Shown: positions 31,083-37,398 of the stretch, piece after piece | Layout: every line of letters starts with the position of its first letter | How positions within the stretch are numbered: position 1 is the stretch's first letter | Program-made: the position numbers and the translations under genes | Origin: Alphaproteobacteria bacterium | GTDB lineage: Bacteria > Pseudomonadota > Alphaproteobacteria > SMXQ01 | Length of the DNA: 64,000 nt | Assembly: GCA_050485485.1 (NCBI GenBank) | Contig: JBJHBM010000005.1 | Location: 11,877 to 75,876, forward strand | Direction: 5' to 3' | Notes under the pieces: generated by a model | Told to the model about the DNA's origin: nothing | Seen by the model: the letters and a program-made list of their open reading frames with translations, nothing else | The model's database searches: none

Positions 31083-31511
31083 CTAAGCGTCATCGGCGAC
31101 GATCGCGGCCTCGATCAGCGCGCGGAAGCGCGCGGGCATCTCTGTCGAGCGCCGCGTCGCGAGGTCGAAGCACACCTCCACGACTTCCTGGCGGGCGTGG
31201 ATCGTACCGGTCTCGACGTTGACGAGGCGCTGGCGGTGGGTCGCGCTGCGGGTGCCGCAGCGGACGAAGCCGGTTTCGACCTTGAGCATGTCGCCGGCCC
31301 TGGCCTCCCGGACAAAGTCGGTGGCGGTGCGCGCCACCACCGTCACGACGCCCACCTCCTGCATCAGCGCGCCGGTGATGCCGACCAGCGGCCAGATCTG
31401 GAAGCTGCCGTCGTCGAATACATGGGCGTACCAGCGCACGTTCATGTGCCCGAGATGGTCGCAATACTGCGGAAAGACGACCATGCGGGCGGTATCGATC
31501 CAGTCGGCCAT
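31083..31511 (-). CDS. 4HBT/YbgC-type acyl-CoA thioesterase
   Basis: Hot-dog fold; DHLGHMNVRWYAHVF catalytic region. Confidence 0.7.
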   Translation of the reverse strand: MADWIDTARMVVFPQYCDHLGHMNVRWYAHVFDDGSFQIWPLVGITGALMQEVGVVTVVARTATDFVREARAGDMLKVETGFVRCGTRSATHRQRLVNVETGTIHARQEVVEVCFDLATRRSTEMPARFRALIEAAIVADDA

Positions 31512-31563
31512 GACGCGCGCTCCCCGTTCGCGGCTGCGGTTGCGGTTCCGGCGGGGAGGATAG

Positions 31564-32271
31564 TCAGGCCGGGTCCTCAAGGAAAGCGGCACGCGGCTCG
31601 ATATGCACGAAGCGGTCCTTGCGGCGGATCCGGCCCATCGCGATGTCGAGGGTGCGCGCGAACATGGGGCCGGCGTAGGCGAAGGTGTGGAACTCGCCGT
31701 TTTCCCCGCACGGGTCGCAGCCGGGCGGCAGGCGGCCGAGCAGGCCGGCATCGAGGTCGCGGCCCAGAAATTCCTCGCCGAGCGCGGCGGTATCGACGCA
31801 CACGATCCGCGCCCGCAGCCCTCCCGCGAGCATGTCGCGCGCGAGCCTTGCGGTGTCGCGGCCCCAGAGAGGGAACAGCGGCGCGATACCGCTGCCGGCG
31901 AGACGGTCCTCGCGGTAGCGGCGCACGTCCTCCAGGAACAGGTCGCCGAACGCCATGTGGGTGATGCCGTCGGCGCGCGCCCGCTCGACGAAGGCGCCCA
32001 TGGCGCGCTCGTAGGCGTCGTTGGGGCAGGGATCGGGCAACGGCACCTCGAACAGCGGCAGGCCGGCGTTGCAGGCCTGGGCGGCGAGGGTCGCGCGGCC
32101 GATGCCGTGCATGGTCACGCGCGCTTCGGCATCCGCGCCGATGACCGTGGTGACGAGGCCGGCGACCTCGACTGCGCTTTCGCTGCGCAGGACGTGGAGC
32201 GCCCAGGCACTGTCCTTGCCGGTGGACCAGCTCAACAGGGCGCGGGGGCGGGGTGAGGGGGCCGTCGTCAT
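31564..32271 (-). CDS. Dph6-related/MJ0570-family PP-loop ATP pyrophosphatase (PF01902-type ATP-binding domain)
   Basis: ALLSWSTGKDSAWAL PP-loop (SxGKDS), EFHTFAYAGP motif. Confidence 0.7.
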   Translation of the reverse strand: MTTAPSPRPRALLSWSTGKDSAWALHVLRSESAVEVAGLVTTVIGADAEARVTMHGIGRATLAAQACNAGLPLFEVPLPDPCPNDAYERAMGAFVERARADGITHMAFGDLFLEDVRRYREDRLAGSGIAPLFPLWGRDTARLARDMLAGGLRARIVCVDTAALGEEFLGRDLDAGLLGRLPPGCDPCGENGEFHTFAYAGPMFARTLDIAMGRIRRKDRFVHIEPRAAFLEDPA

Positions 32272-32329
32272 GGCGCGACGCTACCCCGTGGGCGCTGCGA
32301 CGGGAAGGGGGAGGAGAAAGGGAAGGACG

Positions 32330-35320: not shown

Positions 35321-35322
35321 GG

Positions 35323-36525
35323 ATGTCCACGGGGCTGCCAGCGGGCGAAAGGCCGACGCGGGAGGCCGAGAGCGTACCCGGACACGAAGTGGAATCCGAT
35401 GGTGGCCGTGGCCGCGCGGCGATCGACTTCCTGGGCAAGTGCGTCCATCACGCCGCCTGGCGCTTCCGGTTGCTCGAATACGCCTGGACCCTGGTCGAGC
35501 GTGAGATCGACTCCGCCTCGCCCGTGCCTTGGCGCAAGCGTTTCGCCTTGTGGCGTCGTGGATTCCTCAGCGAATCGGCAATCCTGTACGGCTTCCCTCA
35601 CAACGATTCACGCCTTTACCTCTCCGACTACGCGCGCGGCGTGAAGACGCGCCGCATCAACGGCGCCTATGGCGTGCTGCTCGACGACAAGCTTCTGTTC
35701 GCCCGTCTGCTGCGCGATCACGCGCGCTATCTGCCGACGGTGTTCGGGGTTCTCCGTAATGGGCGTATCGTGCCGGCGCTCGGCGTCGGAGCGCCGGTCA
35801 GCGACGCGACGCTCCACGACCTGCTCGCGCGCAAGCGCGCGGTCGTGCTGAAGCCGGTGAACGGCGGTGGCGGCGCAGGCGTCGTCGTCCTGCAGATCGA
35901 TGGCGACGGCGTGCTGCGCATGAACGGCGCCGCCATAGGCCCGGCCGCCCTCCACGACGTGGCCGCCGCCTGCGACGGACACCTGGCTTGCGCTCTCTTG
36001 CGCCAGCACCCTGCGCTGGCCCGAATCTATCCGCACACCACGAACTCTGTCCGCATCCTCACGATGCACGACGACGACGGGGTATTCATCGCCGCGACCG
36101 TATTGCGGATCGGATGCGGCCGGTCGAGGCCCACCGACAACTGGGGCAGGGGCGGGATGGCGGCGTCCATCGATCCGCACACCGGGCGCCTGGGCCGCGC
36201 GGCGTCCTATTGTGCCGACGAGGCGGCGCTTCATTGGCACTCCCACCACCCGGAAAGCGGCGCGCCCATCGAAGGGGCGGTCCTTCCCCATTGGCGGTTG
36301 ATGCGCGACGTGATCCTGGGCATCGCCCAGTCGCTGCCGTTCCTTCCCTACATCGGCTGGGACGTGGCGATGACGGAAGACGGCTTCCGCATACTCGAAG
36401 GCAACAAGTACAGCGACGTCCACATCCTCCAGGTCCACAAGCCGTTGCTTGCCGACGGCCGCGTACGCGCGTTCTATCGTTCCCATGGCGCCATCGGCGG
36501 CAAGCCCGGCAAGGATTCCGGCTAG
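35323..36525 (+). CDS. sugar-transfer-associated ATP-grasp family protein
   Basis: ATP-grasp core (…AVVLKPVNGGGGAGVVVL…YIGWDVAMTEDGFRILEGNKYSDV) resembling the ATPgrasp_ST family. Start 3 bp after the upstream stop. Confidence 0.6.
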   Translation: MSTGLPAGERPTREAESVPGHEVESDGGRGRAAIDFLGKCVHHAAWRFRLLEYAWTLVEREIDSASPVPWRKRFALWRRGFLSESAILYGFPHNDSRLYLSDYARGVKTRRINGAYGVLLDDKLLFARLLRDHARYLPTVFGVLRNGRIVPALGVGAPVSDATLHDLLARKRAVVLKPVNGGGGAGVVVLQIDGDGVLRMNGAAIGPAALHDVAAACDGHLACALLRQHPALARIYPHTTNSVRILTMHDDDGVFIAATVLRIGCGRSRPTDNWGRGGMAASIDPHTGRLGRAASYCADEAALHWHSHHPESGAPIEGAVLPHWRLMRDVILGIAQSLPFLPYIGWDVAMTEDGFRILEGNKYSDVHILQVHKPLLADGRVRAFYRSHGAIGGKPGKDSG

Positions 36526-36546
36526 GGAAAAATAAGGAGGTCCCGC

Positions 36547-37398
36547 CTAATCGGCCCGTCGTAGGGTTACGGGACGAGGCTCTCCGGAAACGGCGAGCGT
36601 ACCTTCCGCCCGTGCCGGCTCGGCAAAGCGCATCTCCCCCGTCACCTCGCGTTCCGCCACTGCGGCGCTGAAGACAAGGCGGTCGCCGGTCAGTCGCGCC
36701 TCGCGCAACGTCGCCTTCTGCCCGGCGATCTGTATGGTGCCGGTTACTTCCTGGAAACGCTGCGTGAGCTCGATCTCACCTTCGTCCCATTGCCAGCGGC
36801 CGCCGACCTTGGCCGGCACGGTCCAGAGAAACAGATTGTTCCAGCCGAGCTTCAACACCCGGTCGGGCTCCCAATCGCCCATCTTGAAAGAATACGCGAC
36901 CACCCGCGTGCCCGGCCGCAGTTCGTCGAGAAGGCGCGGGCGCAGATGGAGATTGAAGTCGGGCAGCATGAAGAGCGTCACCACGCTCGCTTCGCTGAAA
37001 TCGTCGATGAGTACGTTGCCTTCAACAAAGCGCGCACGATCGGCGATACCCGCCTGTTCGGCGTTGCGACGGCTTTCTGTGACGCGCGCAGGCTCGATCT
37101 CGATACCGACGGCGCGGCGCGCATTGAAATCGCGCACGGCGGCGATGATGAAACGCCCGTCACCGGAACCTAGGTCGTAGAGCACGTCGTCGGGGCCGAC
37201 CGCCGCCATTTCCAGCATGGCGCGCACGACCTCGTGAGGGGTGGGAACGTAGGGAATATCGAAATCGGGAATCTGTTGCTGCGCCTGGGCATGAACGGCG
37301 GCAAGATGCGCAGGTCCGGAGACGAGAGCCGCAGCAAGCAGAAAGGTACGGACGGCCTGAACGGCCGCGCCCGGCGGGAATTTCCATATGGGGGTCAT
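36547..37398 (-). CDS. secreted class I SAM-dependent methyltransferase
   Basis: Signal peptide (MTPIWKFPPGAAVQAVRTFLLAAALVSGPAHLAAVHA); SAM-binding DVLYDLGSGDGRFIIAA. Confidence 0.7.
   Translation of the reverse strand: MTPIWKFPPGAAVQAVRTFLLAAALVSGPAHLAAVHAQAQQQIPDFDIPYVPTPHEVVRAMLEMAAVGPDDVLYDLGSGDGRFIIAAVRDFNARRAVGIEIEPARVTESRRNAEQAGIADRARFVEGNVLIDDFSEASVVTLFMLPDFNLHLRPRLLDELRPGTRVVAYSFKMGDWEPDRVLKLGWNNLFLWTVPAKVGGRWQWDEGEIELTQRFQEVTGTIQIAGQKATLREARLTGDRLVFSAAVAEREVTGEMRFAEPARAEGTLAVSGEPRPVTLRRAD

Follow-up and report, generated by a model that had tools for sequence, protein, structure and literature searches.

A flippase, a QueC-fold PP-loop protein and an ATP-grasp ligase form a conserved trio with a possible role in polysaccharide modification and export

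Introduction

The surface polysaccharides of bacteria carry non-carbohydrate groups, among them amides, amino acids and pyruvate, that control their charge, their antigenicity, how phages recognize them and what material properties they have, and for many of these decorations we know of no enzyme that adds them. Amide-forming enzymes of the PP-loop and ATP-grasp types are a known kind in glycan loci. WbuX, PseA and LfnA (TIGR03573), as well as the asparagine-synthetase-like uronamide synthases, are PP-loop ATP pyrophosphatases that are encoded in surface-polysaccharide clusters and make sugar amides or amidines. On the ATP-grasp side, Cj1438 of Campylobacter jejuni HS:2 uses a C-terminal TupA-like ATP-grasp domain to amidate the C6 carboxylate of capsule glucuronic acid (GlcA) with ethanolamine-P or serinol-P, a step that must precede addition of the next sugar (PMC11800379). 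Here we analyze a 64-kb stretch of alphaproteobacterial DNA (contig JBJHBM010000005.1, 96.7 kb in length, positions 11,877 to 75,876; hereafter the window) in which the gene for a Wzx-type flippase faces those of a QueC-fold PP-loop protein, here called X, and of an ATP-grasp ligase of the ATPgrasp_ST family.

A sequence-only reading of the window had joined this trio to a 4HBT thioesterase, a Dph6-like PP-loop protein and a methyltransferase. As first described, the locus is in part a chance adjacency; a genuine lead lies in the trio and in the family of X. The notion of one pathway that employs all three ligases can be set aside as a false lead, and two sharper ones take its place: a minimal three-gene module with a conserved, probable operator, and a QueC-fold family that has no Pfam model, comprises several thousand clusters, includes named cultured carriers and is linked and fused to pyruvyl transferases and glycosyltransferases.

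Results

Wzx, X and the ATP-grasp ligase form a conserved unit

Genes were called by third-position GC (window GC 64–72%) and then confirmed by HMM, and gene calls for the window's own contig are also on record. All six genes lie where the earlier reading had placed them (Table 1). The ATPgrasp_ST gene starts 2 nt past the stop codon of X, and the two are likely to be translationally coupled; on the other strand, Wzx, the Dph6-like gene and the 4HBT gene follow one another in the same direction, separated by 58 and 52 nt.

Within the alphaproteobacterial clade of X, Wzx orthologues (49–70% identity) lie within 5.2 kb of X at 10 of 11 loci, or about 7 of 8 independent lineages, the exception being Shumkonia, where X occurs without Wzx or ATP-grasp. 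The closest relatives (L006/L008; Wzx 69%, X 61% and ATP-grasp 63% identity) have the same divergent layout in wholly different flanks, and no Dph6-like, 4HBT, methyltransferase or glycosyltransferase gene is found within 10 kb of them. Wzx likewise accompanies X in L002/L010, L009, L089 and L090/L011, with the ATP-grasp gene directly downstream of X in all of them save L011, whose contig ends at X, and L088/L023 carry Wzx and X without ATP-grasp. The conserved unit is therefore a trio, Wzx divergent from X and ATPgrasp_ST, with a shared inverted-repeat element. It is found again in about seven further alphaproteobacterial lineages, for the most part within exopolysaccharide clusters of the Wzx type.

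In L002, L088, L089 and L090 the module is embedded in a standard Wzx/Wzy-type polysaccharide cluster comprising epimerases/dehydratases, Wzx, PS_pyruv_trans, GT4, a β-helix protein and GT4, and a large GT2 gene lies beyond ATP-grasp in L002 and L089 and adjoins X in L088. None of these additional cluster genes is present in the window. The earlier reading had taken the missing glycosyltransferases as a sign that the product is a small glycoconjugate or lipid; that step is not supported, given that in five related lineages the trio, or Wzx with X, resides in an ordinary exopolysaccharide (EPS) cluster.

Table 1 Features of the locus and their assignment
Feature	Position	Strand	Evidence	Remark
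4HBT_2 thioesterase	31083..31511	-	PF13279, E 2.5e-19	Backbone gene paired with Dph6-like; outside module
Dph6/MJ0570-type (TIGR00290-family) PP-loop protein, 235 aa	31564..32271	-	PF01902, E 4e-24	Backbone gene; outside module
MOP/Wzx-type flippase, 507 aa	32330..33853	-	PF13440, E 3.6e-76; PF01943, E 1.2e-34	Core of conserved trio
Perfect 21-nt inverted repeat	33922..33999	.		Divergent Wzx/X intergenic region; probable operator
X, QueC-fold PP-loop ATP pyrophosphatase, 415 aa	34073..35320	+	No HMM match; fold and motifs	
ATPgrasp_ST carboxylate-amine ligase, 400 aa	35323..36525	+	PF14397, E 5.3e-41	
Class-I SAM methyltransferase, signal-peptide-like N-terminus	36547..37398	-	NCBIfam prot_lys_mtase_Arch, E 5.7e-44	Convergent neighbor; outside trio
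tRNA-Asn and tRNA-Cys	38354..38614	-		Edge of variable slot holding Sel1, methyltransferase and trio

An inverted repeat separates the divergent genes

The 219-nt region between Wzx and X contains a perfect inverted repeat whose 21-nt arms, CAGTGACCAGACTGTGACCGG at 33922–33942 and its reverse complement at 33979–33999, are 36 nt apart. Each arm is built of two hexamers with an 11-bp period (GTGACC-N5-GTGACC), an arrangement that presumably resembles the tandem sites of PhoB/OmpR-type regulators. Loci with the motif GTGAYC-N5-(T)GTGA upstream of X also include L002, L010, L006/L008, L009, L089, L090/L011 and Shumkonia (L001), and the form GTGAYC-N5-(T)GTGAC was located, mostly as an inverted pair, at 9800/9909 in L002, 9848/9875 in L006, 6926/7016 in L009, 7013/9859 in L089, 9868 in L090 and 9878 in L001. 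The window holds three matches against 0.26 expected, and 1.34 Mb of loci outside the alphaproteobacterial clade hold none.

Across loci the arms are 12–91 nt apart and the spacer bases are not kept complementary. An RNA hairpin was considered and rejected, as the spacers are non-complementary in L002, L006 and L009 and the distance between the arms varies; for the same reasons the element is probably a protein-binding operator. In the Rhodovibrionaceae metagenome-assembled genome (L089, 7521–9823), PqqD/ScmC-like and NTP_transf_5 genes sit between the operator and X, a recognition-type element of pathways for peptides that are made on the ribosome and modified after translation (RiPPs) within an EPS locus.

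The Dph6-like and 4HBT genes are part of a separate backbone

The six genes are flanked upstream by an ArsR/LMWPc/MIP set, a cupin and a FAH-family hydrolase and downstream by a Sel1 lipoprotein, tRNA-Asn, tRNA-Cys, PCMT and TolC. Comparison with two further loci, from related genomes, resolves this region into a backbone with the order cupin, FAH, 4HBT, Dph6-like ... tRNA-Asn, tRNA-Cys, PCMT, TolC. The first four genes (29560–32271 in the window) have orthologues in the same order in L091 (5998–11473) and L092 (6001–9873, with 16 nt shared between the Dph6-like and 4HBT genes), at identities of 77–85% for cupin, 73–82% for FAH, 82–84% for 4HBT and 62–67% for the Dph6-like protein. Wzx, X and ATP-grasp are absent from both loci. 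In L091, TolC, PCMT, tRNA-Cys and tRNA-Asn lie on the far side of the Dph6-like gene, as in the window, and the slot between the latter and the tRNAs holds three unrelated genes.

Because L091 and L092 retain the block without the trio and L091 carries other cargo, Sel1, the methyltransferase, ATP-grasp, X and Wzx fill a variable slot, while the Dph6-like and 4HBT genes are part of the backbone. The quintet proposed earlier is accordingly not conserved as a neighborhood. Although the slot is variable, a recent integrase-mediated insertion is not supported: the 3' end of tRNA-Asn has no att-like direct repeat longer than 11 nt between 31 and 38.3 kb, and no integrase is present.

The Dph6-like protein shares with Dph6/MJ0570 (diphthine-ammonia ligase) an N-type ATP-PPase domain (PDB 3rjz, E 4.7e-9). 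Against the Dph6_archaeal model TIGR03679 it scores 58.3 bits, well under the equivalog cut-off of 197.3, and only its match to PF01902, at the level of the domain, is significant. Unlike Dph6/MJ0570, it is of the bacterial TIGR00290 type and is syntenic with 4HBT, FAH and cupin rather than with the flippase module. We know of no function for this bacterial family; its homologues are 60–70% identical across phyla, a degree of conservation that suggests a context-independent role.

The methyltransferase likewise falls outside the unit, contrary to its earlier inclusion in the set, being absent from all other trio loci. It is strongly similar to the crenarchaeal protein-lysine methyltransferase aKMT (PDB 5bxy, 5fa8 and 5jwj, E 1e-43 to 1e-46), has a C-terminal extension of ~90 aa, and its match to NCBIfam prot_lys_mtase_Arch remains under the cut-off. 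An exported aKMT-like enzyme, as its signal-peptide-like N-terminus would imply, is unusual in a bacterium.

X resembles QueC in fold and motifs but is not a QueC family member

X gave no match in Pfam, NCBIfam (E ≤ 0.01) or PADLOC, nor in sequence and profile searches of the PDB. Its fold, predicted with high confidence, is closest to QueC and includes a QueC-like three-dimensional core, the overall layout being an extra N-terminal domain of ~105 aa, the PP-loop core, a Cys4 knuckle and a C-terminal helical domain. The Rossmann-like α/β core together with an SGGxDS-type phosphate loop (FSGGVDS, residues 125–131) places X in the PP-loop superfamily. In an alignment of 30 homologues C289, C298, C301 and C304 are invariant, and the motifs TN.R, HGA, PWGS.P.LDPLWS, HDG.E..R..K and LRVC...NCG.CEKC.RT are invariant or nearly so. 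The spacing of the four cysteines, C-x8-C-x2-C-x2-C (VCHHDTGEFNCGHCEKCLRT in X), is the same as at the C-terminus of E. coli QueC.

The label QueC-like given by the earlier reading is thus right for the fold and the motifs, as the PP-loop and the Cys4 spacing match those of QueC, and wrong at the level of sequence. Of the four Pfam families that had been named for the locus, PF01902, PF14397 and PF01943 do find their proteins, whereas PF06508, the QueC family model, gives no match to X. X also fails to match TIGR03573, the N-acetyl sugar amidotransferase model that covers WbuX, PseA and LfnA. Compared with QueC and the QueC-like Cap9, with which it shares the PP-loop, the Cys4 spacing and the predicted core, X has the additional N-terminal and C-terminal domains, is often found as tandem or fused duplicates, and occurs in the context of polysaccharide synthesis rather than of deazapurine metabolism (queuosine or archaeosine) or defense, for which PADLOC gave no match. 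A literature search that combined QueC-like proteins with polysaccharides, and pyruvyltransferases with PP-loop proteins, returned nothing relevant.

The X family is widespread and linked to pyruvyl transferases

A profile search with the X family against 1.84 billion cluster representatives (50% identity) returned 9,572 matches at E ≤ 1e-3, a number that falls to 4,577 at the stricter E ≤ 1e-30, and X is encoded at no fewer than 577 loci in species-representative genomes, with carriers in Proteobacteria, Actinobacteria, Acidobacteria, Planctomycetes, Chloroflexi, the candidate phyla radiation (CPR) and Bathyarchaeia. A Pfam scan of the immediate neighbors of X at ~70 distant loci found PS_pyruv_trans 13 times, GT2 7 times, GT1/GT4 6 times and asparagine synthase (Asn_synthase) 3 times, the last being a point of likeness to the PP-loop glycan amidotransferases. 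When jackhmmer family profiles were used as proxies at 76 distant loci, a PS_pyruv_trans-like gene was present within 3 kb of X in 29 and some polysaccharide gene within 5 kb in 46.

Fusions tell the same story. Long proteins of the family are X-X fusions, and others join X to other polysaccharide enzymes, as in X-PS_pyruv_trans-X (P0285), X-X-PS_pyruv_trans (P0312), X-X-GT2 (P0286) and X-methyltransferase (P0351). At the level of single loci, the lipopolysaccharide (LPS)/capsule region of Aliagarivorans marinus (DSM 23064) contains an aminotransferase, a Zn-ADH, X, PS_pyruv_trans, a glycosyltransferase and GT25, and Motiliproteus combines Wzx, PS_pyruv_trans, an acyltransferase and X. Further cultured bacteria with X are Aquisalinus luteolus NH6-79, Shumkonia mesophila and Rhodococcoides fascians A44A, and no cultured bacterium with both X and ATPgrasp_ST was identified. 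Together, the neighbor counts, the fusions and these worked loci make for a strong linkage of X to glycan synthesis, and to pyruvyl transferases above all. X is therefore a member of a large unnamed family, set apart by its architecture and by this linkage and outside both QueC and TIGR03573.

Outside the alphaproteobacterial clade X often comes in two to four tandem copies or as head-to-tail X-X proteins of 700–870 aa (P0282–P0320 for duplicated or fused proteins; loci L012, L026, L034, L044, L047, L049, L052, L067, L068, L073, L081 and L084), with tandem duplication at 14 of the 76 distant loci. Some of the duplicated copies lack the canonical S-G-G-x-D-S by a strict regular expression. Such duplication and fusion suggest either an obligate pseudo-heterodimer or successive reactions.

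The ATP-grasp ligase and the flippase

The ligase scores above the gathering threshold of PF14397 and has the ATP-grasp fold, with the peptide and amino-acid ligases LysX, RimK, GshB and Ddl as its closest structural relatives. ATPgrasp_ST was reportedly defined by Iyer et al. in 2009, and our literature search found no characterized PF14397/ATPgrasp_ST member. Close homologues number only 41, on contigs shared with X. Cj1438 offers a functional template, being an ATP-grasp enzyme of a polysaccharide locus that forms an amide from a carboxylate, ATP and an amine; it differs in that it is TupA-like and fused to GT2, whereas the window's ligase is a stand-alone PF14397 protein coupled to X. Among distant relatives, L094 (8001–12939) carries four tandem ATPgrasp_ST paralogues beside an Orn/DAP/Arg decarboxylase and proteins of 278 and 534 aa, with no X, an arrangement that looks like an assembly line for a small peptide or polyamine conjugate. 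At another distant locus, two ATPgrasp_ST genes accompany Wzx, GT2 and a pair that resembles DltA/DltC.

The flippase is a Wzx/MOP protein (PF13440 at 256.7 bits, PF01943 at 120.4 bits) with several hydrophobic segments along its length. Its best NCBIfam matches, the MOP flippase PRK10459 (WzxC-type) and TuaB, both fall under their equivalog cut-offs. Its family is that of the flippases in canonical Wzx/Wzy EPS clusters with a pyruvyl transferase, such as those for colanic acid (WzxC/WcaK), succinoglycan and teichuronic acid (TuaB). In contrast to those clusters, the flippase and the two ligases are all that remains together in the window and in L006/L008, where genes for a glycosyltransferase, a polymerase and a chain-length regulator are missing for 10–20 kb around them. 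The earlier remark that the locus lacks a glycosyltransferase is correct: between ~24 and 64 kb the window has neither an initiating nor any other glycosyltransferase, Wzy or chain-length regulator, and its sole glycosyltransferase gene is a GT9 at 10719–11753, ~20 kb from the module.

Discussion

A proposed role in polysaccharide modification and export

We lean towards the view that the three genes serve to modify and export a polysaccharide. The analysis shows to which families and folds the three proteins belong, that they are inherited together with a common operator, that the backbone genes are independent of them, and that X is linked, and at times fused, to polysaccharide genes. What the substrate is, that an amide is formed, and how the steps are ordered and timed relative to flipping are inferred as follows. 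The module would modify an acidic polysaccharide repeat unit on its lipid carrier before exporting the product. X, with its QueC fold and Zn-Cys4 site, would adenylate a carboxylate on that unit, either a ketal-pyruvate, favored by the family-wide linkage, or a uronate, favored by precedent; the adenylate could react with ammonia or an amine, yielding an amide, and a second round of the QueC type might lead to a nitrile. The LysX/RimK/GshB-like ATP-grasp enzyme may form an acyl-phosphate and then ligate an amine or amino acid, after which the cognate, co-inherited Wzx, which is of the same type as the WzxC/TuaB flippases for acidic units, would flip the modified unit. The glycosyltransferases, pyruvyl transferase and polymerase would be encoded elsewhere in the genome.

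Carboxylate amidation in particular is a tentative assignment and we would put less weight on it than on the general role. The earlier reading had proposed ATP-driven amidation before export, and part of this survives, as ligase-type enzymes are indeed tied to the flippase and amide formation on a carboxylate is the most reasonable chemistry for them; the part that placed all three ligases and the thioesterase in one pathway does not. More speculative still, and in our estimate doubtful, is the broad proposal that X founds an undescribed, widespread QueC-fold Zn/PP-loop family of bacteria, CPR and archaea that installs an unrecognized glycan modification together with pyruvyl transferases (for example, conversion of a ketal-pyruvate or uronate carboxylate to a carboxamide or nitrile) and that, in alphaproteobacteria, works with an amino-acid ligase of the ATP-grasp type and its own dedicated Wzx under a shared operator. 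If the chemistry were true, thousands of 'hypothetical proteins' in polysaccharide loci would gain an annotation.

Several observations weigh against these proposals. The comparison with QueC is thin by sequence: hhalign of the X family profile with E. coli QueC aligned the PP-loop alone, at a probability of 8.7%, and Foldseek of X against the PDB returned nothing at E ≤ 0.001. ATPgrasp_ST is near X in none of the 76 loci outside the alphaproteobacterial clade and distant ATPgrasp_ST genes occur without X, so that the two enzymes need not share a target group. Roughly 40% of the distant X loci, some of them on short contigs, have no polysaccharide gene nearby, and the jackhmmer profiles behind the neighborhood counts may conflate GT-B-like families. 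Within the window there is neither a pyruvyl transferase nor a uronate-forming dehydrogenase, which leaves the substrate without a tie to this genome, and our literature search turned up no biochemical data on proteins of the X family or of PF14397.

Alternative explanations

The best placed of the alternatives, itself unlikely, is that X and/or the ATP-grasp enzyme have a soluble precursor as their substrate (possibly a nucleotide sugar, a pyruvate/PEP-derived donor or an amino-acid donor), with the resulting building block installed by transferases encoded elsewhere and Wzx linked to the pair through recognition of the finished unit. The retention of Wzx with X and ATP-grasp where the other cluster genes are gone, as in the window and L006, is more simply explained by modification of the unit that is flipped, and the Cj1438 precedent works on a growing glycan.

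We consider it improbable that a stand-alone trio serves a lipid-linked substrate other than EPS, for example a precursor of peptidoglycan or some other molecule carried on polyprenol, with a MurJ-like MOP protein and ligases that amidate or extend the peptide stem. MOP flippases do include MurJ, the structural neighbors of the ATP-grasp enzyme are peptide and amino-acid ligases, and no glycosyltransferases are close by; the flippase, however, matches Polysacc_synt_3/WzxC/TuaB-type models rather than MurJ, orthologous trios lie within EPS clusters, and X is found mainly with pyruvyl transferases and glycosyltransferases, with no mur or fem genes among the neighbors examined.

Slightly less probable again is the original proposal that the six genes (4HBT, Dph6-like, Wzx, X, ATP-grasp and methyltransferase) make up one pathway that, with no glycosyltransferase involved, builds and exports a small glycoconjugate or lipid bearing several amide or aminoacyl groups. 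The short gaps on the minus strand would permit read-through, and glycosyltransferases are missing within 20 kb in the window and within 10 kb of the L006/L008 trio. The reading fails because the synteny of the Dph6-like and 4HBT genes, in a block with FAH and cupin that is collinear in L091 and L092, is independent of the trio; conversely, L006/L008 and the other trio loci lack the Dph6-like, 4HBT and methyltransferase genes, most trio loci sit within full EPS clusters, and the cross-phylum conservation of the Dph6-like protein suggests a role of its own.

Least probable of all, the trio could be a non-functional remnant of an EPS cluster that has lost its glycosyltransferases, as the absence from the window of the rest of the L002/L089/L090 cluster might suggest, but all three reading frames are intact with host-like GC3 (0.84–0.93), every family-invariant residue is kept, and the same isolated trio with its upstream motif persists in L006/L008 at 61–69% protein identity in a different flank.

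Other features of the window

Promoter and terminator scans stayed at background level, and Rfam identified only the two tRNAs and hence no riboswitch. Apart from the trio, the window's only envelope-glycan genes are the GT9 heptosyltransferase-like gene and an NAD-dependent sugar epimerase/dehydratase gene adjoining a BBP2_2 β-barrel porin (3923–6330), 20–30 kb upstream; no link between these and the trio was found. Just upstream of the backbone block lies a set that resembles an arsenic-resistance locus (27900–29534), with genes for an ArsR-type regulator, an ArsC-like phosphatase (LMWPc) and a channel of the MIP family; MIP and LMWPc genes occupy the corresponding place in L092.

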